From IMG/VR virus record IMGVR_UViG_2706796076_000001: 61,208 nt of DNA, one strand, 5' to 3'. Position numbers and translations under genes: made by a program. Under the pieces are notes generated by a model. It saw nothing but the letters and a program-made list of their open reading frames with translations. It did not search any database and was not told where the DNA came from. This document shows, piece by piece, positions 4,455-27,959 of the stretch (its first letter is position 1; the number at the start of each line of letters is the position of its first letter). The DNA is from a virus. Its lineage: Duplodnaviria; Heunggongvirae; Uroviricota; Caudoviricetes; Herelleviridae.

Positions 4455-6146
4455 TTGGCAGATTTATTTAAGAGTTTAAGACTAGGTAAAGACTATACCG
4501 ATAGTTATGGAGCGGTACCTATAGATAATGATTTACAAGCTAATATAAAAAAAATAGAACAAGATAATGTTAATTTAAATAAGAGCATATCAAAATCTCT
4601 ATATGGTAATCAGCAGGCATATGCAGAACCTTTTTTGTCTTTAATGGATACTAATCCAGAGTTTAGAGATAAAAGAAGTTATACAAAGAATGAGCATAAT
4701 TTACATGATGTTCTTAAAAAGTTTGGTAATAATCCTATACTAAATGCAATTATACTTACTAGAGCAAATCAGGTAGCTATGTATTGTCAACCTTCTAGAT
4801 ATTCTGAAAGAGGATTAGGTTTTGAAGTACGTATGCGTGATTTAGAAGCAGAACCTGGTAAAAAAGAAAAAGAAGAAATTAAAAGAATTGAAGAATTTAT
4901 ATTAAATACAGGAAGAGATAAAGATGTAGATAGAGATTCTTTTCAAACTTTCTGTAGGAAAATAGTTAGAGATACTTATTTATACGACCAAGTTAATTTT
5001 GAAAAAGTATTTAATAAAAAGAATGGTACTAAGTTAGATAAGTTCATAGCTGTTGACCCTAGTACAATATTCTATGCTACTGATAAGAAGGGTAAAATTA
5101 TAAAAGGTGGTAAAAGATTTGTACAAGTTATAGATAAAAAAGTTGTAGCTTATTTTACTTCTAGAGAACTTGCTATGGGTATAAGAAACCCTAGAACAGA
5201 TATTAATGCTTCTGGATATGGACTTTCTGAAGTAGAGATAGCTATGAAAGAATTTATAGCTTATAATAATACTGAAAACTTTAATGACAGATTCTTTAGT
5301 CATGGAGGAACAACTAGAGGTATATTACAAATAAAAGCAGACCAACAACAATCTCAACATGCATTAGAAAATTTTAAAAGAGAATGGAAATCTAGTTTCT
5401 CTGGTATTAATGGAAGTTGGCAAGTGCCTGTAATGATGGCTGATGACGTTAACTTTGTAAATATGACACCTACAGCAAATGATATGCAATTTGAGAAATG
5501 GTTAAACTATCTTATTAATATTATTTCAAGTCTGTATGGAATTGACCCCGCTGAAATTAACTTCCCTAACAGAGGAGGAGCTACAAGTTCTAAAGGTGGA
5601 AATACATTAAACGAAGCAGACCCGTCTAAAAAACACCAAGCTTCTCAAAATAAAGGATTACAACCTTTATTAAGATTTATAGAAGACTTAATAAATAGAC
5701 ATATTGTATCTGAGTATGGAGATAAATATACATTCCAATTTGTTGGTGGAGATTCTAAATCTGAAAAAGATAAAATAGAAATACTTAAAGCTAAAGCAGA
5801 AGTAGCTTTAACTGTTAATGAAGTAAGAAAAGAATTAGGTGAACCACCAATCGAAGGCGGAGACACTATACTTAACGGTGTATATGTACAAAGAGTAGGA
5901 CAAATATACCAACAAAATCAATATGAAGATGCACAAAGAAAAGAAAAATTAGAAATGATGCAAAATGTATTAAGCTCAGAAGGAGAAGACCAAAATACAG
6001 AAACAACAAATGAGCAAGATACAGAACAAGAAAGTAATGAAGTAGGTAAAGACGGACAAGTTAAAAATCAAACAAATACAAATCAACAAGGTATGACAAC
6101 AAGTAAAAATCCTAATAACGAAAAACCTGAAGATTTTAAAAAATAA
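4455..6146 (+). CDS. Portal protein (likely TTG start at 4455, 563 aa)
   Basis: Begins (M)ADLFKSLRLGKDY as recalled for K-like portals. Has FFSHGGTTRGIL and YGIDPAEINF portal motifs. The track start at 4416 overlaps the previous gene. Confidence 0.93.
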   Translation: MADLFKSLRLGKDYTDSYGAVPIDNDLQANIKKIEQDNVNLNKSISKSLYGNQQAYAEPFLSLMDTNPEFRDKRSYTKNEHNLHDVLKKFGNNPILNAIILTRANQVAMYCQPSRYSERGLGFEVRMRDLEAEPGKKEKEEIKRIEEFILNTGRDKDVDRDSFQTFCRKIVRDTYLYDQVNFEKVFNKKNGTKLDKFIAVDPSTIFYATDKKGKIIKGGKRFVQVIDKKVVAYFTSRELAMGIRNPRTDINASGYGLSEVEIAMKEFIAYNNTENFNDRFFSHGGTTRGILQIKADQQQSQHALENFKREWKSSFSGINGSWQVPVMMADDVNFVNMTPTANDMQFEKWLNYLINIISSLYGIDPAEINFPNRGGATSSKGGNTLNEADPSKKHQASQNKGLQPLLRFIEDLINRHIVSEYGDKYTFQFVGGDSKSEKDKIEILKAKAEVALTVNEVRKELGEPPIEGGDTILNGVYVQRVGQIYQQNQYEDAQRKEKLEMMQNVLSSEGEDQNTETTNEQDTEQESNEVGKDGQVKNQTNTNQQGMTTSKNPNNEKPEDFKK

Positions 6147-6287: not shown

Positions 6288-7058
6288 TTGGAAGAAATGA
6301 AGTTTAATGCTTTTGTTCCTATGGACTTATCAAAATCTGTAAGCACAAAAGAGGATACAGAACAATTTTCTAAAGTTTCAGGCTGGGCTAGTACACCAGC
6401 ATTAGATTTACAATCAGATATTATAAACCCTAAAGGAATTGACATAAGTTATTTTAAAGAGCACGGTTATGTTAACTATGAGCATAATCAAGATGAAGTA
6501 GTAGGTTTCCCTACAGATAATTGCTATGTTGATGTTGAAAAAGGATTATATATCGAAGCTAACTTATTTAAAGATAACGAAAATGTTATTAAGATGTTAG
6601 ACTTAGCAGAGAAATTAGAAAAATCTGGAAGTGGTCGTAAGTTAGGTTTTAGTATTGAAGGTGCAGTAAAAAAACGTAATGTAAATGATAACAGAGTTAT
6701 TGATGAAGTAACAATTACAGGTGTCGCTTTAGTTAAAAATCCAGCAAACCCTGAGGCAACATGGGAAAGTTTTGTTAAATCATTCTTAACAGGACATGGA
6801 ACTACACCTGAAACGCAAACAGACGCAGGAGCATTACGTAGAGAATCTTTAGCATCTAGTATTACAAACTTAACATATGTAACTAAGATTAAAGATTTGA
6901 AAAAATTTAATGATACTTGGAATAATATTGTAGAAGATTTGAATAAATCTAATCAAATGGGTTATGAAGAATCCATTATAACATTACAGCTTGCTAAAGG
7001 TCTTTCAAGAAAAGACGCTGAGTTAGCAGTAATGCAAATTAGGAAGGAGCATTTATAA
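6288..7058 (+). CDS. Prohead protease (TTG start)
   Basis: Contains GWASTPALDLQSD, YEH, LGFSIEG and GVALVKNPANPEA (HK97-type protease motifs); lies between portal and capsid. Confidence 0.92.
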   Translation: MEEMKFNAFVPMDLSKSVSTKEDTEQFSKVSGWASTPALDLQSDIINPKGIDISYFKEHGYVNYEHNQDEVVGFPTDNCYVDVEKGLYIEANLFKDNENVIKMLDLAEKLEKSGSGRKLGFSIEGAVKKRNVNDNRVIDEVTITGVALVKNPANPEATWESFVKSFLTGHGTTPETQTDAGALRRESLASSITNLTYVTKIKDLKKFNDTWNNIVEDLNKSNQMGYEESIITLQLAKGLSRKDAELAVMQIRKEHL

Positions 7059-15332: not shown

Positions 15333-15677
15333 ATGGCATCACAAGCTAAACAAACAGTCCATACTGGTAATACCGTATTGTTGTATATTAAAGGTAAACC
15401 AGTAGGAAGAGCACAATCAGCAAGTGGTAGACGTGAATACGGAACTACTGGTGTGTATGAAATTGGTTCAATCATGCCACAAGAACACGTTTACTTAAAA
15501 TATGAAGGTACGTTAACAGTAGAACGTTTACGTATGAAAAAAGAAAACTTTGCAAAATTAGGATATGCTTCACTAGGTGAAGAAATTCTTAAAAAAGATA
15601 TTATCGACATTCTTGTTATTGATAATTTAACTAAACAAGTGATTATCAGTTACCATGGCTGTAGTGCTAATAACTAT
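15333..15677 (+). CDS. Tail tube protein, exon 1 (115 codons)
   Basis: MASQAKQTVHTGNTV...YHGCSANNY; ends in U15677. Confidence 0.93.
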
Positions 15678-16009
15678 GAAAAAGATTGTAGCTTCTAAGA
15701 GTAATCTTAGTCGAAAAACTTTTCTAAACAGGGAAGCCTAAGTGTATAAAACATAAGGTAATCTTGTGCTAAATCAGTTTATAATAAACTGTAAATGCCA
15801 AACGACTAACTGAAACCTACTTATAATAATAAGGGAAGTAAGTGTACAACCAAGCGGTCAGGGTGTGAAGTAATTATTCTATAAATCCTTGCTAAGTGGA
15901 AAAGAAAAGAGTCCTTAAATGGATTATGATATAGTCTGAACTATATGGAAACATATAGAAGTTCATAAGAGAACTGGTAATGACTAGCGACCATTATCGA
16001 ACGAAATTG
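15678..16009 (+). ncRNA. ORF-less group I intron 1 of tail tube gene (332 nt)
   Basis: P1 CUAU/GUAG (15688-15691); GACUA 15804-15808; UAGUC 15932-15936; GAAA-capped P9; terminal G16009. Confidence 0.9.
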
Positions 16010-16038
16010 AATGAAGAATGGAGAACTAATGAAATCGT
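16010..16038 (+). CDS. Tail tube protein, 29-nt micro-exon 2
   Basis: Encodes NEEWRTNEI(V), corresponding to the recalled K-like NETWQTNEIV. Confidence 0.9.
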
Positions 16039-16356
16039 AAATAAATTGCGACCTTAAAGAGTAATCTTTATTGAATAATTTATCTAATTCATGGAACACC
16101 CTAACGTAAAGACGAGGGCAATCATGAGCTAAGCTCTTTATTTAAAGAGAAAGTGCAACGACTATCCTTGGAACGGACATGAAAATTGTCAATAGGAGTA
16201 GGGCTCAAGTTAATGGAGTAGGTGAGAATCCTTTAAATCGAAATGGTAAAAATCCTATATAAAAAATAGGATTGTGATATAGTCTAGACTTATAGGAAAC
16301 TATGAGAAGTTCATAAGAGAACTGATAGAGTGTTACGAACTCTATTGAATATAACG
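16039..16356 (+). ncRNA. ORF-less group I intron 2 of tail tube gene (318 nt)
   Basis: P1 UCGU/GCGA (16048-16051); GACUA 16160-16164; UAGUC 16280-16284; terminal G16356. Confidence 0.9.
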
Positions 16357-16405
16357 AACTGAAGAAATTGAGTTCTCGTACTTAACAGCTTCAGATAAAG
16401 CTTAA
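16357..16405 (+). CDS. Tail tube protein, exon 3 (spliced product 140 aa)
   Basis: TEEIEFSYLTASDKA*, the canonical tube C-terminus. Confidence 0.92.
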
Positions 16406-16414
16406 TTTCTAAGT

Positions 16415-16446
16415 AAATAGACCAGGATTAAATTCTTGGTCTATTT
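16415..16446 (+). terminator. Terminator hairpin after tail tube gene
   Basis: 13-bp stem AAATAGACCAGGA / TCTTGGTCTATTT. Confidence 0.7.
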
Positions 16447-16449
16447 AAC

Positions 16450-16478
16450 TTGACAAAATACAAATGAAATGGTAACAT
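16450..16478 (+). promoter_or_regulatory. Sigma70-type promoter of the endonuclease gene
   Basis: TTGACA-N17-TAACAT with extended -10 TG. Confidence 0.65.
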
Positions 16479-16509
16479 AAGATTAACATTAAATAAGGAG
16501 AAATTTTAT

Positions 16510-17448
16510 ATGACAGGATACAAATTAAAAAGTTATGGTGAAAGGATTATAGAAACTATATTAACAGAAAATAATATAAATTATGTAAGTGAAAAAAGTA
16601 TAAATACAGGTAGAAAAAGACCACAAAGGATAGATTTTTACATAAAGGTAAAAGGTAAATATTATGCAATAGAATACCAAGGAGAGCAACATTTTAAAGA
16701 AACTACAGGTGCATGGTCTAGTAAACCGTTAGAGTATGTTCAGATGTTAGATAATGTTAAATATGAATATTGTAAAAGAAATAATATAAATGTTTTATAT
16801 ATTAATTATCCTAACCTAGATAAAAAAGATATTTTATGTCAAATAGAAGATTTTTTAGGTATTAAATTAAAATACACAGAAGGAATTAGAGATTTTTATA
16901 TAGGTACAGAGAAAGAGAAAGAAGTAATAGAATTTTATTTAAATCATTCTGAAAAAGAAACACAAGAAGAATTTGATATGACAAAAAATGAAGTTAAAGG
17001 ATTAATGAGACGAAGAGGTATTATTAAAAGATTTAAAAGAGTTATAGGTCTAAATATAAAAACTTTAGAAGAAGTAAAGTTTGACACATTAAAAGACGCT
17101 CAGGAATGGCTAGGTTCTAGCGGTATTAGAGGCTGTGTTACAGGTGATAGAAAAACATGTTGTGGTTATGTATGGAGATATGAAGATGAAGATTTTTCCT
17201 ATAGAGCTAAAACTATAACAGATAAACGTATTAAAGTATATGTAGCTAAAAAAGGGAATGAAGTAATAAAATTACCTTTACAAATGTTATCATCAAAATA
17301 TGGACTACCTAAAGCTAACGTAGTAGGTTGTGTTAAAGGTAAGTATAAAACTGTTAAAGGGTATACTATTAGAGAAGCTACAAAAAAAGAACAAGAAGAA
17401 ACATTAAGTAGTATAAGTTATATAGATTACATTCAAAGTTTTAAATAA
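16510..17448 (+). CDS. Free-standing putative homing endonuclease (Vsr/DUF559-like nuclease plus two NUMOD1-like repeats)
   Basis: SYGERII...RIDFYI...AIEYQGEQHF...DNVKYEYC nuclease motifs; C-terminal repeats GCVTGDRKTCCGYVWRY and GCVKGKYKTVKGYTIRE. Confidence 0.75.
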   Translation: MTGYKLKSYGERIIETILTENNINYVSEKSINTGRKRPQRIDFYIKVKGKYYAIEYQGEQHFKETTGAWSSKPLEYVQMLDNVKYEYCKRNNINVLYINYPNLDKKDILCQIEDFLGIKLKYTEGIRDFYIGTEKEKEVIEFYLNHSEKETQEEFDMTKNEVKGLMRRRGIIKRFKRVIGLNIKTLEEVKFDTLKDAQEWLGSSGIRGCVTGDRKTCCGYVWRYEDEDFSYRAKTITDKRIKVYVAKKGNEVIKLPLQMLSSKYGLPKANVVGCVKGKYKTVKGYTIREATKKEQEETLSSISYIDYIQSFK

Positions 17449-19228: not shown

Positions 19229-19738
19229 ATGCAAGCACTTGTTAAGAGACCTTTATCCAGGAATATGTGGGCTATTATGAGAGAGTTTAAAGTATTGCCT
19301 ACAGACCCTAATTTCAAAAATTTAGATGCCTACCAAATACACTTTATTATTGAAAGTATGAATTTAGATAATAGAGAAATGGAAAGACGAAATAAAGGTT
19401 ACGATAGTACAGTTGAAGATGATGATACTTCATGGTATGATGAATCACAAGAAGAATTCGAGCCAGTACCAGACTTCTTAGATGCTGAAGACTTAGCAAA
19501 ACAAGCCTATGACAGACTTTCAGAATCAGAACGTATTAAGATGACTGAACGTGCAGAAGCTGAAGAAGATGATGAGGAAGCAAGAGAAATTCATAAAAAT
19601 AAAATGGCACAAATTCAAAAGAATATTGAAGAGCTTGACAAACAAGTTAACAATACTAGTGATAATCAAGAAGAGTACTCACAACAAAGTATTGAAGACG
19701 CACTTAATGAGTTTGACGATGATGATTTATATATGTAG
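19229..19738 (+). CDS. Second tail assembly chaperone (probably also made as a +1 frameshift fusion)
   Basis: Acidic 169 aa; the +1 frame is open from 19181, overlapping the end of the previous ORF. Confidence 0.78.
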   Translation: MQALVKRPLSRNMWAIMREFKVLPTDPNFKNLDAYQIHFIIESMNLDNREMERRNKGYDSTVEDDDTSWYDESQEEFEPVPDFLDAEDLAKQAYDRLSESERIKMTERAEAEEDDEEAREIHKNKMAQIQKNIEELDKQVNNTSDNQEEYSQQSIEDALNEFDDDDLYM

Positions 19739-19792: not shown

Positions 19793-22700
19793 ATGGCAAT
19801 GAATGATAACTATAGATTGAATATATCAGGTGATAGCTCTCAGTTAGAGAGTAGTTTAAAAATCATACAAGCTTATATGGATGCTATAGAAAATATGGAG
19901 CTTGACAAACCGATTGACGGTATGGCTGATAAACTAAAAATTATAGCATCTCAATTTAAAAGAATTAAAGATATTGCTGATAAAACTGATGGTAGTGCTT
20001 TTATATCTTCTAAAGATATGAATACAGTAGTAGATTCTACAAGAAAAGCTACTAAAGAAATTAATGATTTTAAAGATGCTATATCCGATGCTCAAAAAGA
20101 ACAAATAGCAATGGGTAAAGCACCTAATACAAATTTACAAAAATCATATGAAAAATTAAATAATACTTTAGAATCTATGACTAAGAATTTAGATGAATTC
20201 TCTTCAAAAACTGTAGGTACCGATAGTGGTATTAATACACGTATACAAGATATGAAGCGTCTAGGTGAAGCTACAGATGATTATTATGAATCTTTAAATA
20301 ATGCTATGACAGCTCAACAAAAGATGAAACAGATAAGAGCTTCTGAGTATAGAGTAAGACGTAATTTAGATAAATCAGAAATATCAGGTAGAATGTCTTA
20401 TGATACAGGTACTCAAACTAAATCAGCAATCGGTAAATCTCAATTTATGCGTAGAGATTCAGCTGACCTAAAAAAACAATTGGCTGATTTACGTAATAGA
20501 GATAAAAATGATACATCAATGACTAATCTTAATAGGAGATTTACAAATAAAGAAATTGATAAATCTACCTATCAACAAGAAAGAGCACAAATAGAAGCTA
20601 ATAATAAAGCTAGAGCCAAAGAAATAGATTCCATTGAAAAATTAATACGTCAAATGGATACTACATCTAACTACTTTGATAATGTAGCTAGTAAACAGAT
20701 GGATGACCGAAGAATAGACCCAGCTAGAGGAACGTTTAAAGGTATCTTTAGAGAACGTGCACCTTCCATTGCCTCACACGGTGTAATGGCTGGTATGGCT
20801 GTTGGTGGCGGTATGTACATGAAAGGTAAGTCTTTAAGTGAATCAAACCGACCACAAAAAATAGCCTTAGGTCAGCAAATGGGTACAAGTGATTATAAAT
20901 CAGTAAGACATAATTTTGAAGAGATGTCAATAGATAATCATCTAGGTTATAATAGTACTGATATGCTTAAATTTGCTTCAGACTACATGGGAAGTGTAGG
21001 ATATAAAGGTCAAGACAATGTAAATAGTGGAGTTAAAGAGTTAGCTACAGGTGGAAAAGCGATGGGTATCGCAGACGACCAAGCTTATAGGGACTCTATG
21101 AATACATTAATGCACACTGGTGCTATTGATTCTGGAGCAGATATTAAAGATATACAAAGTGCTTTCTTAGGTGGACTAAAAGAATCAGGAATGGTTGGAA
21201 GAAATGAAGAGCAATTAAAAGCTTTATCTTCAATTGCTGAGTCAGTCGGTCAAGGAAGAACGATGACAAAAAATGATTTAAGTAATGTATCATCTATGCA
21301 ATCTATGTTAGCATCTTCAGGTTCTAAAGGATTACAAGGACAACAAGGTGCAGAATTCATGTCAAGCCTTAATGATGGAATTAGAAATGGTATGCAAGAC
21401 CCTTATATTAGAAATGCAATGGGTTGGGGCTCACAATACCAAGGTTTAGAAGGTAGGTATGATTTACAAAAACGTATGGATAAAGGTATTGCCGACCCTG
21501 AAAATGTATCAGACCTTTATCAACAAGCTACTCAAGTATCAAGCTCTAAAAAAGGACAAAAGATAGCCTTTAATGAAAGCCTAAAACAAATGGGTGTAGA
21601 TGCTACCTTAGAACAGTCTGATGAGTTATTTAAAATGGCTGAAGAAGGTAAGCTAACTAAGAAAGCTTTAGAAGACTATAAAAAGAAAACATCTAAAGAA
21701 GGTTCTAAAGAAAGAGATAAAAACTCTAAAGATTATAAAGAATCACAAGAAGGTAAAGACGACCAAGGAAAAGCTAAAGCTGATAGATTAGCAGAAAACC
21801 TTTACGATATGACTGGAAAAATAAGAAATGTTAATACAGCATTAATGAGTCTTCCAGCACCTTTCTACTTAGCAGGAGCTAGTGCCATGGCTTTTGCTGT
21901 TTCTTTAATGAAATCTATAGCAATGATGAAAGGTTCAGAGATGTTAGGTAGAAGAGCTAACGGAGAATCTTTATTAGGAAGAAGAGGCAGAGGAAAAGGT
22001 AGAAATGGAAGAGCAGGAGGTCGTAGAGGAAGAACAGATAATGGTTCTGGAACTCCAATAGGCGGTGGAGGCTCCCCTAAAAAACCTAATGGTAATGGTG
22101 GTGGAACATTCCACAAAGGCTCAACAGGTAGAAAAGGTGGAAGACTTGGAAGAGTTGGTGATTTTGGTAAAAGACTTATCCAAGTTGGAGAATATAAACC
22201 TACCGATACAAGCCGAGGCGGACAGATAAAAGGTTTAGGAGATTTAGGTAAGAAAATAAAAGATGGAACAACTAGAGCAGGAGAAGGCATTAAAGGAATT
22301 GATTGGAAAGGACTCGGAAACAATGCTAAAAACATTGGTAGAGGAGTTGTTTCAAAAGGTCGAGGAATTGACTGGAAAGGAATAGGAAGTAATGCCAAGA
22401 CAACAGGAAAAGGTATAGTCTCTAAAGGAAAAGGTCTTTTATCTAAAATACCTAAAGGCAAAGGCGGAACAAGTGGTATAACAGCAGGAGCTAGAGGTCT
22501 TAAAGGATTAGGAAAAGGAATTCCATTATTAGGATTAGGTATATCAGCATTAGATATAGGTAGTTCTCTTAAGAGCGGTAACAAAGAAGCTATAGGAGGA
22601 AGCATCGGTGGAGCTACAGGAGCTACCGCAGGTGGAGCTATTGGTGCTACTATAGGTTCTGTAATACCAGGATTAGGAACAGCTATAGGTGGTATTGCTG

Positions 22701-23071
22701 GAAGTACAATAGGAGGAATAGTTGGAGATAAAGCTGGCTCAGAAGTCGGTAAAAAAGGATTGAAAAAATCTTTAGGTATCGGATGGACTAAACCTAAATC
22801 TTATAAAGACTTTGGTCTTGTAGGAAAAGCATGGCATGGATTATTTGGAAGCAAAAAAGGTAAAAATAAAAACATACCAACAAACGACCCTACCAAAATA
22901 GGATTCTTAGGTGGAGCTGGAAAAGGAGGAATGGGTTCTCCTTCAGATGATAAAGTAAAAAGAAATCCAGCACTTATTAGTATGGCACCACAATTAAGTC
23001 ATCAAGGTTTAAGTGAATTTGAAAAAGAGGGAGATAAAGAAAATAAAAAAGGAATTTCAGGATTTAGAGGT
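19793..23071 (+). CDS. Tape measure protein, exon 1 (1093 codons)
   Basis: MAMNDNYRLNISGDSSQLE...; long helical region then Gly-rich region; ends ...GISGFRG at the U.G splice site. Confidence 0.9.
22295..22432 (+). repeat. Tandem 23-aa (69-nt) repeat in tape measure
   Basis: GIDWKGLGNNAKNIGRGVVSKGR followed by GIDWKGIGSNAKTTGKGIVSKGK. Confidence 0.85.
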
Positions 23072-23587
23072 AACGATTGTTACAAACAAATTGCCTTGCT
23101 AGTAGCGTAAGTTGCTAGTATCGGGTGTTAAATGCTAAGAATCCGTAAAGCTAACTTAACTAAAACAGAATCCGAAAGGATAAATGGAAAAGTTACGAAA
23201 GTAGAAAAAATAAGTTAGATGTGCTAAGGTTAAATCCTAAGGTATACGTAATCGGTCTTTAGCAGGGAAAGTCCTAAGTTAATAGATAAGGAAGACCCTC
23301 AACGACTATCTCCTGACGGGAGAGTAAAACCACAAGCTATTGGTGGAAGAAAAATACCCACCCTATAATAATAGGGAAGTCAAATAGTCTACACACGTAG
23401 TGAAAGCTAGTGACTAGGAATAGACCTAGGGCTTAGAAGTAGCGTTCTATAGCTAAATAAAGTTAAAATATATAAGTTTTTAAATTTTATTCCAACTTTA
23501 TATTTTTAAAAAAAATAACTATCCTTCTAAGACCTATATAAAAGGATAAAATTTATAAATGTTTTATATATTTTAACCTATGGTAAG
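23072..23587 (+). ncRNA. Group I intron in tape measure gene (P7.1/P7.2 present, IA2-like); proximal 3' end uncertain (G23583 or G23587), distal alternative end near 24467-24486
   Basis: P1 GAGGU/GCCUU (23093-23097); P2 hairpin; P3 GGGUG/UACCC; P4 UGCUAA/UUAGCA; GACUA 23304-23308; UAGUC 23385-23389; GAAA-capped P9. Confidence 0.88.
23462..23493 (+). repeat. Intronic docking strand complementary to both 23544-23577 and 24438-24461
   Basis: 14 consecutive bp plus about 10 further bp with the proximal copy; 23 of 24 bp with the distal copy. Confidence 0.9.
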
Positions 23588-24436
23588 AAGAAGGGTAAGA
23601 AGAGAAATAATCTAAAAGAAAGATTTAGACTTGAAACTTTAAGAGAGAAAAATGCACGAGAACAAAATAAAAACATACCTGTATTAAGCCAATTCTTTGA
23701 TAACGTAATAGCTAACCTAGAATCATCAGACTCTGGAGGAGATGATGAAGGCGGTTCTGTAGGTGAACTAGATTACTTAAATGGTAAAAACTTTACTAAT
23801 TCAGATATAACTAAACACGATTTAGGTAAAACAGCTAAGGGCGTTAATGCTAAGATGTTAAATAAATGGATTGACGCTATGGCTCCTAAAAATTCTAAAA
23901 TGCGTGGTTTAGGAGAAATATACATGAAAGCAGGTAAAGCATCTGGATTAGACCCTCGTTACTTAGTAGCACATAGTGCTGTAGAAACAGCTTGGGGTAC
24001 TTCCAACCTATCACATGGAGGAGACCCTAAAAAAGGTAACTGGTACGGAATTGGTGCGTTTGATAACAATCCTAATAACGGATTTAATTATGGTTTAGGT
24101 ATTGTTGGTGGAGCTAAGTGGATAGCTAAAAATTTCTATAGTAGAGGACAAAAAACACTACACAAAATGCGTCATAATGGAGGACAACATGAATATGCAA
24201 CAGCAGGAAACTGGGATACAATGATTGCTAGTATAATGGGTAGTTCAGATAAATTCTTAAAAGGTGGTAAAGGTGGTAGGTTTTCACCTCCACAGACAGA
24301 AACAGTAGAATCAACAACAAGAAGTAAGAATTTAGACTTAAATTTAACTATTCCAGAAGGTTATGATGTAGATAAAGCAAGTGATATGATTGTAAATGAA
24401 GTAGTTAATTACATGAATAAAAATTTACAATACTAA
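23588..24436 (+). CDS. Tape measure alternative C-terminal exon A: linker plus GH73 glucosaminidase-like domain
   Basis: Frame open from 23531 with no credible own start. Contains LREKN, LDPRYLVAHSAVETAWGTS, NWYGIGAFD and YAT. Start coordinate assumes the in-frame junction at G23587. Confidence 0.75.
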   Translation, partial: KKGKKRNNLKERFRLETLREKNAREQNKNIPVLSQFFDNVIANLESSDSGGDDEGGSVGELDYLNGKNFTNSDITKHDLGKTAKGVNAKMLNKWIDAMAPKNSKMRGLGEIYMKAGKASGLDPRYLVAHSAVETAWGTSNLSHGGDPKKGNWYGIGAFDNNPNNGFNYGLGIVGGAKWIAKNFYSRGQKTLHKMRHNGGQHEYATAGNWDTMIASIMGSSDKFLKGGKGGRFSPPQTETVESTTRSKNLDLNLTIPEGYDVDKASDMIVNEVVNYMNKNLQY

Positions 24437-24486
24437 TATTTAAAAACTTATATACTTTAACGTATGGCATACTAGGAGATAAAAAG

Positions 24487-25296
24487 AAAAAAGGTAAAAT
24501 GACTACCGAACAACTCAGAGAGAAAAATAATGCTTCTGAGACTAAAAACCTTAAAACTTATAAAAGTTTATTAGATAGAGCTGAACAATTAATAAATGAT
24601 GCTAAATCTTTAGACGGAGGAGGAAGTGATTCAGGTAGTTCTGATGACTCTGACGTAGGGGATTCAGCAGGTGGAGATAAGAAAAAATCAGCTGATAAAT
24701 GGAAAGATGATATTAGAAAAGCCGCCAAAGCAATGGGTGTTAAAATATCAGATAAAGATGTAGACGGAATAGCAAGTCTTATTCAAAAAGAATCTGGTGG
24801 AGACCCTAAAATAAAACAACAAATTAAAGATATAAACAGTGGCGGTAATGAGGCACAAGGTCTTTTACAATATGTTCCTAGTACTTTCAACAACTATAAA
24901 GTAAAAGGACATGGAAACATTCATAATGGATACGACCAATTATTAGCTTTCTTTAATAATAAAAACTGGAAGAGCGACTATAACCCTAACGGTGGTTGGT
25001 CTCCTACAGGAGGAAGAGCTAAAGGAGGTAAAGGTGGTAGATTCTCAGCACCACAAGAACCTGTAAGTCCTGTGACAAGTGCTTTACTTAACAATACAGC
25101 ACCTTTACCTACAAGAAGCTCTAATAGTAATTCAATGTCTAGTAACGTGAATAATAACAATAATGTTAGAGTTAATGTGAATGTACAAGGTAATCAAAAT
25201 AATTCTGAAGAATTAGGAGAAGCTGTAGAAAGTAAGTTTAATAATGTTATGAATACAGATTTAAGTATCTTCTCCAATCAATATAGAAGAGTTTAA
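24487..25296 (+). CDS. Tape measure alternative C-terminal exon B (or stand-alone ORF from ATG 24499): linker plus SLT-type lytic transglycosylase
   Basis: IASLIQKESGGDP (catalytic Glu) and GLLQY motifs; LREKN start and KGGKGGRFS end shared with exon A. Confidence 0.75.
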   Translation, partial: KKGKMTTEQLREKNNASETKNLKTYKSLLDRAEQLINDAKSLDGGGSDSGSSDDSDVGDSAGGDKKKSADKWKDDIRKAAKAMGVKISDKDVDGIASLIQKESGGDPKIKQQIKDINSGGNEAQGLLQYVPSTFNNYKVKGHGNIHNGYDQLLAFFNNKNWKSDYNPNGGWSPTGGRAKGGKGGRFSAPQEPVSPVTSALLNNTAPLPTRSSNSNSMSSNVNNNNNVRVNVNVQGNQNNSEELGEAVESKFNNVMNTDLSIFSNQYRRV

Positions 25297-25297
25297 T

Positions 25298-25321
25298 AAG
25301 GTGGTTTATAAACCACCTTTT
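25298..25321 (+). terminator. Intrinsic terminator after exon B
   Basis: AAGGTGGTTT-ata-AACCACCTT followed by T. No equivalent hairpin lies between exons A and B. Confidence 0.75.
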
Positions 25322-25352
25322 ATACATATTTTTTAACAAAGGACAGATTTAA

Positions 25353-27959
25353 ATGAAAAGGATAAGAAGACCTGATATAAGATTAGAATTCGTTACAGAT
25401 GAAAATATATTTACTTTAAGATATAGTAATGCTGTAGAAGTTACAGGAGAGCAAGTAGGAAATAAAGTCCTAGGTTTCCAAACTAAAAATGCTATGTCAG
25501 ATGATAGTGCTACTTTTGTCATTACTCTAGCAGGAGATACAAATTGGGATAAAGCTTTAATGATTAATGATATTGTTAAGATTTATATTAATCCTAATCC
25601 AGCAGATGATAAAGAAGGACTAGTATTAGTAGGTATGATTTCTCAAGTATCTAAAATAGGAAGTTACAGCAACGACCAAACCACATATAGAATAACAGGT
25701 CAAGCTTTCTCTAAACCTTTTATTAAATTTGGATTAGGTGTAATCCAAGAGGTTCAAGCTGTATTACCAGCAACAGGTTGGTTAGTAGATGGTGAGAAAA
25801 TAAAATTTAGTGGTTCTAATGCTAGTCAAATAATGAAAGAGGTATTAGATTATTTTATACCATTTATGAGATATAAGTACGATGATGGTAAAGGTAACCA
25901 TAATAAGACTATATCCGACCATTTTGCTTGGGATGGATTAGATAGCTGGACAGCTTTTGAGAATCTTAAAGACACCACTCAATTAACTAATTTTGACGGT
26001 AGCTTAAAGCAAATGATGGATATGATTACAGCTAAACCATTTAATGAATTATTCTTTAGAAACGGACAAGATAAAAACGCTGATAAAACACAATTAGTTA
26101 TGCGTAAGACACCTTTTAATGAATCTCAGTGGAAAGCTTTAGATTATGAGACAGTAAGTTCTGAAGACTTTGTAGAAGAAGATGTAGGTAAATCTGATGT
26201 AGAGACATATTCTATATTTACAGTTACAACACCACAAATGCTTAAAACAATGGAAGCTGATGTATTTTCTAAACCGCAATATCATAAAGAGCTTGTTGAT
26301 AGATATGGTTATTCTAAATTAGAAGTAGAAAATATGTATATACCTATTGAAGAGAACTCATCTACAGAAGATGATAACAATGATGCTGGAGATGAACAAG
26401 AATCTTATGATAAAGTAATGAAAGACCTTAAAAAAGAAGGTAAAGATAAAGTATCAAAAGCAAAAAATAAATGGGTTAAAAAGTTAGCTAGTAAATATAA
26501 AGGATTAACGAAAGAAAATGCACAAGAAATAGTTGACAAATTCTCAAAAGATGGTAAACTAAGTGAAGAAGATTATAAAAAGATTATTGATAAAAGAGAT
26601 GCTGGAGCTCAAAAAGGTACTTACGATAAAGTATTAAAAGACCTTAAAAACCAAGGACAACAAGAAGTAAATGCAAAACAAGAAGGTTGGGCTAAAATAC
26701 TATCTAGTAGATATCATGATTTAACTAAAGACCAAGCTAAAAAATTAGTAGCAGAGTTCTCAAAAACTGGAAGTATCTCTGAAAGTAAGTATAAAGAAGT
26801 TACAGGTAGAAGTGCGGAGTCAGACCAACAAATAGATAATAGACCTATAGCAACTGTATCTAAGCTTAAAGATAAACTTAAAAAACACTTCCCTGATAAT
26901 AAATCTTTTGAAGGAGAAGATGGTAAAAAGAATAAGAAAAAAGCTATTGATGATTTAGCAAATAACTTTAGATTTGGTAGTAAAGCAGATGCTGAAAAAC
27001 TTGTAGAAAAATATATGGAATATAAAGGAACACCTCCTGACGACCAGATATATAAAGACTATATTAAGGCATTAGAGGAGATTAGTAATGCTAGTGCAGA
27101 TGTAGGAGCAGATGCTACAGACAGTCCTATGTTGATATTTAGTAAAATGCTTTATAATTGGTATTACAATAATCCTAACTTCTATTCAGGAGATATAATT
27201 GTTCTAGGACACCATAAATATGATTTAGGAAAACGATTGTTTGTTAAAGATGAACAACGTAATGATGTTTGGGAATTCTATATTGAATCAGTAGAACATA
27301 AATTTGATTACAAACAAGGATACTATACAACTATAGGAGTAACTAGAGGACTTAAAGAAGCTGAAGTACCAGACGGAAGTCCTGTTAGATTTGCACCTCC
27401 TTGGGGTCAATCATCAGACTTTATCGGAGGTTTATTAGGAGAGAAATCACTAGCAGACATGAAATCAGAAGCCATAGCTGAAAAAAATAAAGGTAAAGAT
27501 GGTGGCGGAGATGATGAAGGAGGAGACGCTAGTGGAGGAGAATCTCTTAAAAAATTAGAAAAGTACAAAGGTGATTTACCTAAGTGGGATAAGAAAACTT
27601 ACCCAGGAAATCCACAAGTAGGTGGTTTAGTAGGTGAATGTACTTGGTATGTATATAATAGACGTAAACAGTTTGGGCTTTCCTGTGGAGCGTGGGGTGA
27701 TGCTCATAATTACGACAACGCCGCCAGAGCACAGGGTATAGGTGTAGGAACAACACCTAAACGTGGTGCTATTCTTAACTGGGAAGCTTACAAAAGTGGA
27801 GACCACGGAACAGGTCATGTTGCTTTTGTAGAAGGTGTCTCTAAAGATGGTAAAACAATCCATATATCTGAATATAATTATTCAGCTTACCATACTTATG
27901 GTGAGAGAACGCTTAAAGTAAGTAGTTTACCTAAGGGAAATTATCACTTTATATATTAG
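25353..27959 (+). CDS. Tail-associated lysin/baseplate hub with C-terminal CHAP domain
   Basis: MKRIRRPDIRLEFVTD start as in K ORF56-like proteins; GECTWYV...GHVAFVE...ISEYNY CHAP catalytic motifs. Confidence 0.92.
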   Translation: MKRIRRPDIRLEFVTDENIFTLRYSNAVEVTGEQVGNKVLGFQTKNAMSDDSATFVITLAGDTNWDKALMINDIVKIYINPNPADDKEGLVLVGMISQVSKIGSYSNDQTTYRITGQAFSKPFIKFGLGVIQEVQAVLPATGWLVDGEKIKFSGSNASQIMKEVLDYFIPFMRYKYDDGKGNHNKTISDHFAWDGLDSWTAFENLKDTTQLTNFDGSLKQMMDMITAKPFNELFFRNGQDKNADKTQLVMRKTPFNESQWKALDYETVSSEDFVEEDVGKSDVETYSIFTVTTPQMLKTMEADVFSKPQYHKELVDRYGYSKLEVENMYIPIEENSSTEDDNNDAGDEQESYDKVMKDLKKEGKDKVSKAKNKWVKKLASKYKGLTKENAQEIVDKFSKDGKLSEEDYKKIIDKRDAGAQKGTYDKVLKDLKNQGQQEVNAKQEGWAKILSSRYHDLTKDQAKKLVAEFSKTGSISESKYKEVTGRSAESDQQIDNRPIATVSKLKDKLKKHFPDNKSFEGEDGKKNKKKAIDDLANNFRFGSKADAEKLVEKYMEYKGTPPDDQIYKDYIKALEEISNASADVGADATDSPMLIFSKMLYNWYYNNPNFYSGDIIVLGHHKYDLGKRLFVKDEQRNDVWEFYIESVEHKFDYKQGYYTTIGVTRGLKEAEVPDGSPVRFAPPWGQSSDFIGGLLGEKSLADMKSEAIAEKNKGKDGGGDDEGGDASGGESLKKLEKYKGDLPKWDKKTYPGNPQVGGLVGECTWYVYNRRKQFGLSCGAWGDAHNYDNAARAQGIGVGTTPKRGAILNWEAYKSGDHGTGHVAFVEGVSKDGKTIHISEYNYSAYHTYGERTLKVSSLPKGNYHFIY

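Follow-up and report, generated by a model that had tools for sequence, protein, structure and literature searches.

Alternative splicing into different proteins is seen as an essentially eukaryotic phenomenon. In exon 6 of Dscam, a docking site pairs with one of several selectors, which decides the mutually exclusive exon among ~48 variants. In bacteria, a group II intron in the surface-layer protein gene of Clostridium tetani is said, in work by McNeil, Simon and Zimmerly from 2014, to splice alternatively into isoforms with different ends. For phages, we know only of reports of exon skipping between tandem introns. Here we analyze a stretch of 61,208 nucleotides (IMG/VR record IMGVR_UViG_2706796076_000001, hereafter the window) from a Staphylococcus epidermidis myophage of the SEP1 type (Sepunavirus, Twortvirinae, Herelleviridae). 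Its tape-measure protein (TMP) gene contains a ribozyme followed by two modules, A and B, that encode different cell wall-degrading domains. In RNA, a single 5' splice site, after G23070, is used with two 3' sites, and both products are in frame. We consider it highly probable that this is alternative 3' splicing from one 5' site to two 3' ends, giving a TMP-GH73 and a TMP-SLT isoform.

The closest described systems are the group B IStrons, such as BcISt1 of Bacillus cereus and CboIStron/CbISt of Clostridium botulinum and its phages (PMC4227781; 10.1101/2023.11.20.567912). These elements have a G at the end of the 5' exon and a U at the start of the intron, their U-G pair lies one position away from the splice site with a loop directly after it, and an inverted-repeat stem of 15 to 34 bp and >80% AU near the 3' end encloses the open reading frame (ORF) region (PMC4227781). 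Splicing of BcISt1 after G was shown by reverse transcription-PCR, and ORF-less copies of it exist (PMC4227781). In CboIStron, a determinant of ~18 nt is sufficient at the 3' end, a terminal G and AT-rich upstream sequence are required, and a second copy of the determinant gives the ribozyme a choice of splice site that varies with the structure around it (PMC13521648). For group I introns, exon skipping has been described in orf142 of phage Twort (Landthaler and Shub 1999) and in the polymerase gene of SIOphi (PMC11878797).

The tape-measure intron resembles the group B IStrons in its GG-ending target (GAGG here, AAGG in relatives), its G-ended 5' exon with U as the first intron base, its shifted U-G pair and loop, its IA-type core with P7.1/P7.2-like hairpins, and its long AU-rich inverted-repeat stem, which brings a distant 3' end to the core. 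It differs from them in that it has no transposase or TnpB, ends in UGG (GGG in one relative) instead of CGG, and has two complete 3' ends, with a terminal exon of the host gene rather than an insertion sequence as cargo. The engineered CboIStron duplication (NAR 2026, PMC13521648) likewise offers a choice between two 3' determinants, but it is laboratory-made, with copies few to tens of bases apart and no coding consequence, whereas the tape-measure sites occur naturally at a distance of ~880 nt, are conserved in several genera, and open into two different protein domains. Twort orf142 and SIOphi are similar in showing alternative self-splicing of a virion or core gene in Herelleviridae, but they need at least two introns and lose an internal exon, whereas here one intron serves two terminal exons. 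The likeness to Dscam is functional only, since Dscam splicing is spliceosomal, protein regulated, and eukaryotic, whereas the tape-measure helix belongs to the structure of the ribozyme itself, with two variants. The C. tetani case reportedly shares the production of isoforms by bacterial self-splicing, but it involves a group II intron and alternative 5' sites from tandem copies, outside phages. Previous work covers the presence of an intron in this gene, the splice rules of group B IStrons, alternative 3' sites made by engineering, and skipped exons in Twort orf142 and SIOphi. In the searchable literature we found no report of alternative 3' ends for the tape-measure gene, nor of a single self-splicing intron with a natural and conserved choice of two terminal exons that leads to two tape-measure isoforms.

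Evidence for splicing of the tape-measure gene in RNA

The region from 22600 to 25400 is ~100% identical to phiIBB-SEP1 and 98 to 99.7% identical to ten other Sepunavirus records. The ORF at 19793..23110 (plus strand, as are all features below), annotated "tail lysin," is the tape-measure gene with a C-terminal muralytic domain, as shown by its gene order (3' of the tail chaperone genes, as in phage K, according to the RefSeq and phage K annotations), by the Pfam GH73 and SLT domains, and by colinear, continuous homologues. RefSeq gives the tape-measure coding sequence (CDS) as a two-piece join that stops at the stop codon of module A, and gives module B (24499-25296) as a separate gene, "SLT-domain containing protein."

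Seven runs labelled RNA-seq contain the locus, and in all of them the material analyzed was assembled contigs (k=31). In three runs of study P2 (X5, X9, and X11), contigs join 23068 to 24466 with 2 ambiguous letters (GG), which connects exon 1 with B at junction depths of 227, 260, and 13, respectively; in X5, a 3.3-kb exon-1 contig continues directly into B. Run X9 has a further contig, which connects exon 1 with A through a join of 23068 to 23582 with 5 ambiguous letters (GGTAA) at a depth of 61, compared with 260 for the B junction and 221 for exon 1 in the same run. The exon 1-B RNA reads ...UUU AGA GG/C AUA CUA GGA GAU AAA AAG... (a slash marks the splice site here and below). U23071 is missing from this RNA, and therefore the 5' exon ends at or before G23070. 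The GG ambiguity is settled by the B junction together with the IStron splice rule, so that window position 23070 is joined to 24468 (B) and to 23584 (A), and the RNA junctions give G23583 and G24467 as the last intron bases.

With these borders, exon 1 (19793..23070) comprises 1092 codons plus the GG of a split glycine codon and ends in ...GGA TTT AGA GG, after which the RNA contigs depart from the colinear sequence. The short form of the intron (23071..23583, 513 nt) consists of the IA-type ribozyme core and the terminal AU-rich stem, with omega-G 23583; the long form (23071..24467, 1397 nt) consists of the ribozyme with exon A looped out as cargo, with omega-G 24467. Terminal exon A (23584..24436) encodes a linker (KKKGKK...LREKN), the GH73 glucosaminidase domain, and KGGKGGRFSPPQ before its stop, and is part of the excised intron whenever the distal site is used. 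Terminal exon B (24468..25296) encodes the linker ILGDKKKKGKMTTEQLREKN..., the SLT lytic transglycosylase domain, and KGGKGGRFSAPQ before its stop. Isoform A is in frame with 1376 amino acids (...GFRG-KKKGKKRNNLKERFRLETLREKN..., FRG-KKKGKK), and isoform B is in frame with 1368 amino acids (...GFRG-ILGDKKKKGKMTTEQLREKN..., FRG-ILGDKKKKGKM).

A preliminary description of this DNA, made from the sequence alone, had proposed one 5' site joined to two mutually exclusive 3' ends. This proposal is supported by the public RNA contigs, in which both junctions and not a single one are found, by conservation across genera, and by colinear homologues. Its exact borders need correction. The 5' site had been placed at U23071 (U23071/A23072), while the exon 1-B RNA puts the border at G23070/U23071, and the 3' sites favored for their frame, G23587 and G24486, do not match the RNA junctions, which use the second G of each TATGG. 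These G's had been recognized as supported by P9.0 and, in error, set aside as out of frame. The apparent frame problem arose because the canonical U was assumed at the end of the 5' exon, while group B IStrons splice after G: U23071 combined with omega-G 23583 or 24467 predicts AGAGGU/UAAG and AGAGGU/CAUA, which carry one base more than the RNA junctions and break the frame, and this combination was rejected. The two predicted fusions stand, with lengths of 1376 and 1368 rather than ~1375 and ~1362 amino acids and with the junctions given above in place of FRG-KKGKK and FRG-KKGKM.

Several points weigh against alternative splicing at this locus. The RNA support consists of assembled contigs from a single study (P2) on a phage slightly unlike the window, and the exon 1-A junction is present in one run only (X9). 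The DNA run of P2 (X26, labelled "DNA?" and presumed to be phage DNA) is from a slightly different strain. SEP1's own RNA study, P1 (not to be confused with the helix of that name), yields colinear, unspliced contigs only, in runs X1 and X4. The same libraries that contain the junctions also contain nonstandard joins (vector to the intron 5' end, and the intron 3' end to window position 6757). The Rfam group I model RF00028 has no match on 22900-24700, even at E<=10, and it scores two other introns of the window at 69 to 76 bits. Finally, the two proteins are predicted from RNA and sequence. The colinear result of P1, together with the use of contigs, is the main weakness of the analysis. The P1 contigs may represent phage DNA or precursor RNA that hides minor paths, and because contigs drop minor paths we regard P1 as uninformative rather than contradictory. 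P1 is probably the mSystems 2024 data set, which is a guess, as the run names are coded; the searched passages of that presumed paper mention no DNase step and no tape-measure splicing.

These points bear on a different explanation of the junctions, namely, that they are DNA deletion or excision variants (for example, scarless excision of the transposase type at GG sites), template switching during reverse transcription, or assembly artifacts. The chimeric joins to vector and to another phage gene, the origin of the DNA run from another strain, and the examination of contigs rather than reads would all fit such an explanation, and scarless DNA excision by TnpA is known for IS607-type elements (10.1101/2023.11.20.567912). 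However, a k=31 assembly cannot join sequences over 2 to 5 common letters without real spanning reads, and the junction depth is at least that of the exon and far beyond artifact level. Furthermore, the intron copy is gene-less and has no associated serine transposase, the phage DNA run from the same study (X26) contains colinear contigs only, and the phage genomes with the locus in the databases searched (12 Sepunavirus, ~49 mostly Silviavirus at >=80% coverage, and 5 Twort-like) have the colinear form only. We therefore consider an origin of the junctions in DNA or in artifact very improbable, and splicing of RNA the better explanation.

Comparison with intron-free tape measures

The assignment of module A to GH73 and of module B to SLT in the preliminary description is borne out by Pfam (Glucosaminidase, PF01832, E 7e-9, and SLT, PF01464, E 1.2e-5). 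A and B have in common an N-terminal linker (LREKN), an acidic Gly/Ser stretch, and KGGKGGRFS(P/A)PQ. Herelleviridae without the intron have one continuous tape measure with one of these two types of end: the GH73 type is found in Listeria phage P100 (gp28) and in Bacillus phages, and the SLT type in Enterococcus phage A2 and Staphylococcus phage JDF86, while phage K has the B-type linker in common. Isoform A is colinear with P100 gp28. Isoform B can be aligned through the junction with the tape measures of phage K (45% over 138 amino acids, with ...KKKGV, a gap, and KGVKGDTKKKEKMTAEQLREKNN... against ...NKKGISGFRGILGDKKKKGKMTTEQLREKNN...), of JDF86 (49% over 180 amino acids), and of Enterococcus phage A2 (39% over 138 amino acids). 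These alignments indicate that the ten residues before the annotated ATG of B are conserved tape-measure coding sequence. No record examined has both A and B without the intron. A search for proteins related to the Gly-rich end of exon 1 turned up no continuous homologues of use.

The terminal stem and its two selectors

The two 3' ends have a common pairing partner, the dock (23462..23489), which is the 5' strand of a terminal inverted-repeat stem found by repeat search. The proximal selector (23544..23577) is one version of the 3' strand, 6 nt before omega-G 23583, and the distal selector (24434..24461), which overlaps the stop codon of A, is a second version, 6 nt before omega-G 24467. Dock positions 23462-23489 are 93% complementary to 24434-24461 over 28 nt, and positions 23462-23475 are 100% complementary to 23564-23577 over 14 nt. 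The proximal stem thus has 14 perfect pairs plus a 10-nt block, and the distal stem has 23 of 24 pairs. When the dock 24-mer was searched with <=3 mismatches, only the dock itself and the distal complement were found within the window, and 100 shuffles gave 0 matches. Both complements end in ...TTTAAC, followed by CTATGG or GTATGG, with TATGG 6 nt past each complement, and both downstream frames are open from the GG in the same codon phase. These results confirm the earlier observation of a dock with two complements, each followed by TATGG in the same phase.

The duplex energy is -22.7 kcal/mol for the proximal stem, compared with a shuffle mean of -6.7, and -21.7 kcal/mol for the distal stem. 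The terminal stems are all AU-rich and enclose either a 68-nt loop (proximal) or the 944-nt module A (distal). When the complete 1.4-kb precursor is folded by partition function, pairing between dock and distal selector has a probability of 0.92 in the window and 0.92 to 0.99 across three lineages (SEP1, Twort-like, and Silviavirus), while pairing between dock and proximal selector has a probability of 0.00 in all three. All eight 3' junctions, observed or inferred, continue with UA or CA, which is able to pair with U23092-G23093 as a 2-bp P10; the initial bases of the intron itself, UAA, could pair in the same way with the guide before the first step. In the loop of the terminal stem, at 23501-23508, the intron A-run of the window is one A longer than in the SEP1 GenBank record, X1, X4, and X26, which leaves the coding sequence unaffected.

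Conservation across phage genera

The layout of exon 1, ribozyme, near end, A, far end, and B is also present in the Twort-like phages PG-2021_27 and Alsa_1 to Alsa_4 and in ~49 records that are mostly Silviavirus (Romulus, Remus, SA11, Stau2, MR003, and others). The module A protein is ~61% identical between these groups. Splicing by the rule GG/U...GG/ gives in-frame A and B in Sepunavirus, Twort-like phages, and Silviavirus. Within a lineage, the two ends have a common motif after the stem and the same spacing from stem to G, while the motif varies from one lineage to another: the motifs after the near and far stems are TATGG and TATGG in SEP1, ATTGG and ATTGG in the Twort-like phages, and TATGG and AATGG in Silviavirus, and the spacing at the near and far ends is 6/6, 7/7, and 6/6, respectively. 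Dock-selector duplexes in all lineages and at both ends have energies of -19 to -24 kcal/mol, compared with -6 to -8 for shuffled selectors. The extra helix of the distal selector is specific to each lineage: TATATAAGTTTTTAAAT (17 nt) in SEP1, ATTTTATTCCA in the Twort-like phages, and TTGTATTCTA in Silviavirus. The covariation of dock and selectors that the preliminary description had suggested looking for in related phages was thus found in three genera, in the form of lineage-specific complementary changes.

This conservation bears on the possibility that only the near splice is functional, with B a gene of its own translated from its own ATG, the far stem and TATGG a relic of duplication, and the exon 1-B RNA a tolerated by-product. 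In SEP1, separate translation of B from the ATG at 24499 is possible, and it would speak against a fusion; in SEP1 and Silviavirus an in-frame ATG lies 8 to 11 codons past the far site, and the RefSeq join, which ends at the stop codon of A, treats B as separate. The Alsa phages are a further difficulty for a functional far splice. Alsa_1 to Alsa_4 have a run of six A's where PG-2021_27 has seven, and the frame of B is broken nine codons past the far site. This A6 run may be a homopolymer sequencing error, a real loss of isoform B, or a site of slippage on the A run. The runs are located in the lysine-rich start of exon B (L003:6387-6430, L016, and L017, versus L006:6381-6425 in PG-2021_27), where Alsa_1, Alsa_2, and Alsa_3, three of the four Alsa phages checked, have the shorter run; the long ORF of Alsa B stays open and has no start codon.

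Against an independent B gene stand several lines of evidence. In the RNA contigs, exon 1 continues predominantly into B. B of PG-2021_27 has no ATG, GTG, or TTG across the 57 conserved codons past the far site, and the ATG of Silviavirus B has no Shine-Dalgarno sequence. The residues that precede the ATG of SEP1 B (GILGDKKKKGK) align with the continuous tape measure of phage K. Outside a common GTTAAAATATATAA core, the distal strand of each lineage matches its own dock and is not a copy of the proximal strand. A search between A and B found nothing that resembles a promoter or a terminator. Based on these observations, we consider it unlikely that B is expressed only as its own gene, and we favor a role for both 3' ends, with B made mainly or only as a fusion to the tape measure. 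Frameshifting or readthrough from A into B was also considered and was rejected because the frame offset of B relative to A is 2 in SEP1 and 1 in the Twort-like phages and Silviavirus.

Type of ribozyme

The tape-measure intron is best classed as a gene-less ribozyme of the IS607-type (group B) IStrons, an IA-type group I intron. In its P1 region (23066..23098, read from the sequence), exon AGAGG (23066-23070) pairs with the guide GCCUUG (23093-23098), and a U23071-G23093 wobble, one pair past the cut, closes P1 beside a 21-nt loop that contains the mini-hairpin GUAAC/GUUAC. Canonical group I introns have a 5' exon that ends in the U of the U-G pair, but here this pair is one position inside the intron and is followed by the loop, as in group B IStrons. 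The intron ends in an omega-G (G23583 or G24467), as expected for group I. The target sequences are of the group B IStron kind: AGAGG/UAAC here and AAGG/UAAC in the Twort-like phages and Silviavirus. The long, AU-rich stem near the 3' end can surround an ORF region (module A), as it does in group B IStrons. Of the CGG 3' terminus of these elements, the GG is retained but the C is not; the termini are UGG in SEP1, the Twort-like phages, and most Silviavirus, and GGG at the distal end of MR003. The tape-measure copy has no transposase or TnpB ORF. An earlier study recognized an intron in the tape-measure gene, with borders that "could not be determined bioinformatically" (PMC6597688), and we attribute this to the fact that the intron splices after G and not after U.

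An RNAalifold consensus of 4 homologues, two of them near-identical, has 118 pairs, 35 of which show compensatory changes on both sides. The P3 strands and the P7 motifs CAACGACUAU and AAAUAGUCU are invariant, with the P7 strand pair GACUA/UAGUC, and there are two hairpins between P7 and P3', as in subgroup IA. A related ribozyme in the portal gene of Romulus, with ~80% identity over the core, still carries an IS605 OrfB/TnpB CDS and ends in ...TTTTAACTCATGG/TACT. Its exon is GGCGG followed by U (target GGCGG/UAAC) and its guide is GCCGUG (GCCGTG in DNA), which is a compensatory change in P1.

The Silviavirus portal intron (L014:880-900 and L015:470-500) is a full IStron inside a phage structural gene. 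The Romulus record names the interrupted gene only as "similar to portal protein"; when the GG/U...GG/ rule is applied to it, HGGTTRGILQ is restored, which is the sequence of the intron-free SEP1 portal.

Foreign joins and other features of the window

In X5 and X9, (T)TGATTGAGGAATTCTTGAAGACGAA plus AGG comes before the intron contig. The GAATTCTTGAAGACGAAAGG portion is cloning-vector backbone from upstream of Tn3/bla, the last 19 to 20 nt are found in >5000 plasmids, and the match stops exactly at ...AAAGG; the 24-nt flank is absent from the phage, viral-contig, and genome collections. In X9, after G23583, the intron contig runs into 27 nt identical to window positions 6757-6783, which natively follow cctgaGG in the ORF at 6288-7058. 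Both foreign joins (at window 23071 and 23583) are at GG/ sites complementary to the intron guide; ectopic reverse splicing, new insertions, and library chimeras are all candidate explanations. Another reading of the loose contig ends, which lie at 23068 and 23583, was that the prohead protease gene contains a further copy of the intron in DNA. This was rejected because the 5' flank has in-frame stops and is vector of the Tn3/bla type, and only the 3' flank is protease.

Many contigs in X9 and X11 start with the same foreign letters, ...GTATGCCGAAGTATATAAATCATCAGTACAAAGGAT, and some end with ACGAGAAC..., at window positions 6073, 6104, 19596, 19710-19716, 20903, and 25324. These letters look like a technical linker or an oligonucleotide used in that study to tag 5' or 3' ends. 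If they are a tagging oligonucleotide, the tagged positions mark RNA ends, and two of them, 19710-19716 and 25324, immediately precede the tape-measure gene and the next gene, respectively. The transcription unit is closed by a terminator hairpin at 25298..25319, a perfect palindrome that RefSeq lists as a rho-independent terminator. The gene at 19229-19738 is named "RNA polymerase beta subunit" in RefSeq, and the equivalent position in phage K is the tape-measure chaperone frameshift protein, so the RefSeq name is probably an annotation error.

The two introns of the window that score with Rfam are group I introns at 15659-15958 and 16029-16306 (69 and 76 bits), ~70 nt apart in the tail-tube region. 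Window positions 15705-17440 are almost uncovered in all four sequenced strains compared, which indicates that close relatives lack these introns and the following endonuclease-like gene or have something else in their place. As the sequenced strains vary in this segment, the tail-tube introns provide no positive control for splicing.

Discussion

We propose that each 3' end consists of an AU-rich strand that pairs with the dock, a terminal G six bases farther on, and then a pyrimidine and A for a 2-bp P10. Use of the near end removes 513 nt and joins exon 1 to A, which would give a tape measure of 1376 amino acids with a GH73 glucosaminidase tip. Use of the far end removes 1397 nt, including module A, and joins exon 1 to B, which would give a tape measure of 1368 amino acids with an SLT tip. 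The choice between them may be a kinetic competition, in which the near selector is transcribed ~880 nt before the far selector, and the far selector would be thermodynamically favored once it is made. The preference of the folded precursor for dock-distal pairing agrees with B as the major junction (260 versus 61 in X9). The dock-selector pairing, beyond the local 3' motif, would then decide which site is chosen.

If both isoforms are built into tails, as we suppose, each particle would carry two peptidoglycan chemistries, and both hydrolysis of GlcNAc-MurNAc and lytic cleavage of MurNAc-GlcNAc would presumably be useful against staphylococcal walls. In evolutionary terms, a B-type tape measure may have been invaded by an IStron, and an A-type end with its own 3' determinant may later have taken the cargo position. 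It is likely, though with somewhat less confidence than we attach to alternative splicing as such, that a transposon-derived intron has been domesticated by staphylococcal myophages as a programmed switch in which selector competition sets the ratio of co-assembled isoforms, in at least three genera.

If true, this is to our knowledge the first natural case of a single group I-type intron that makes mutually exclusive protein isoforms in a bacterial virus. One ribozyme that picks between two terminal exons would give a structural protein two enzymatic tips, and an IStron-type selfish element would have a role that benefits its host. The locus would also offer a small, natural, protein-free model for splice-site choice via competing RNA helices. 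The genomes of dozens of staphylococcal phages that are therapeutic candidates (Sepunavirus, Silviavirus, and Twort-like) would need a correction of their annotation, since B is currently entered as a gene of its own, and the tape measure either as truncated or with A as its only fusion partner. For the phages themselves, an ejected tape measure tipped with two peptidoglycan chemistries may matter in the infection of staphylococci with modified walls.

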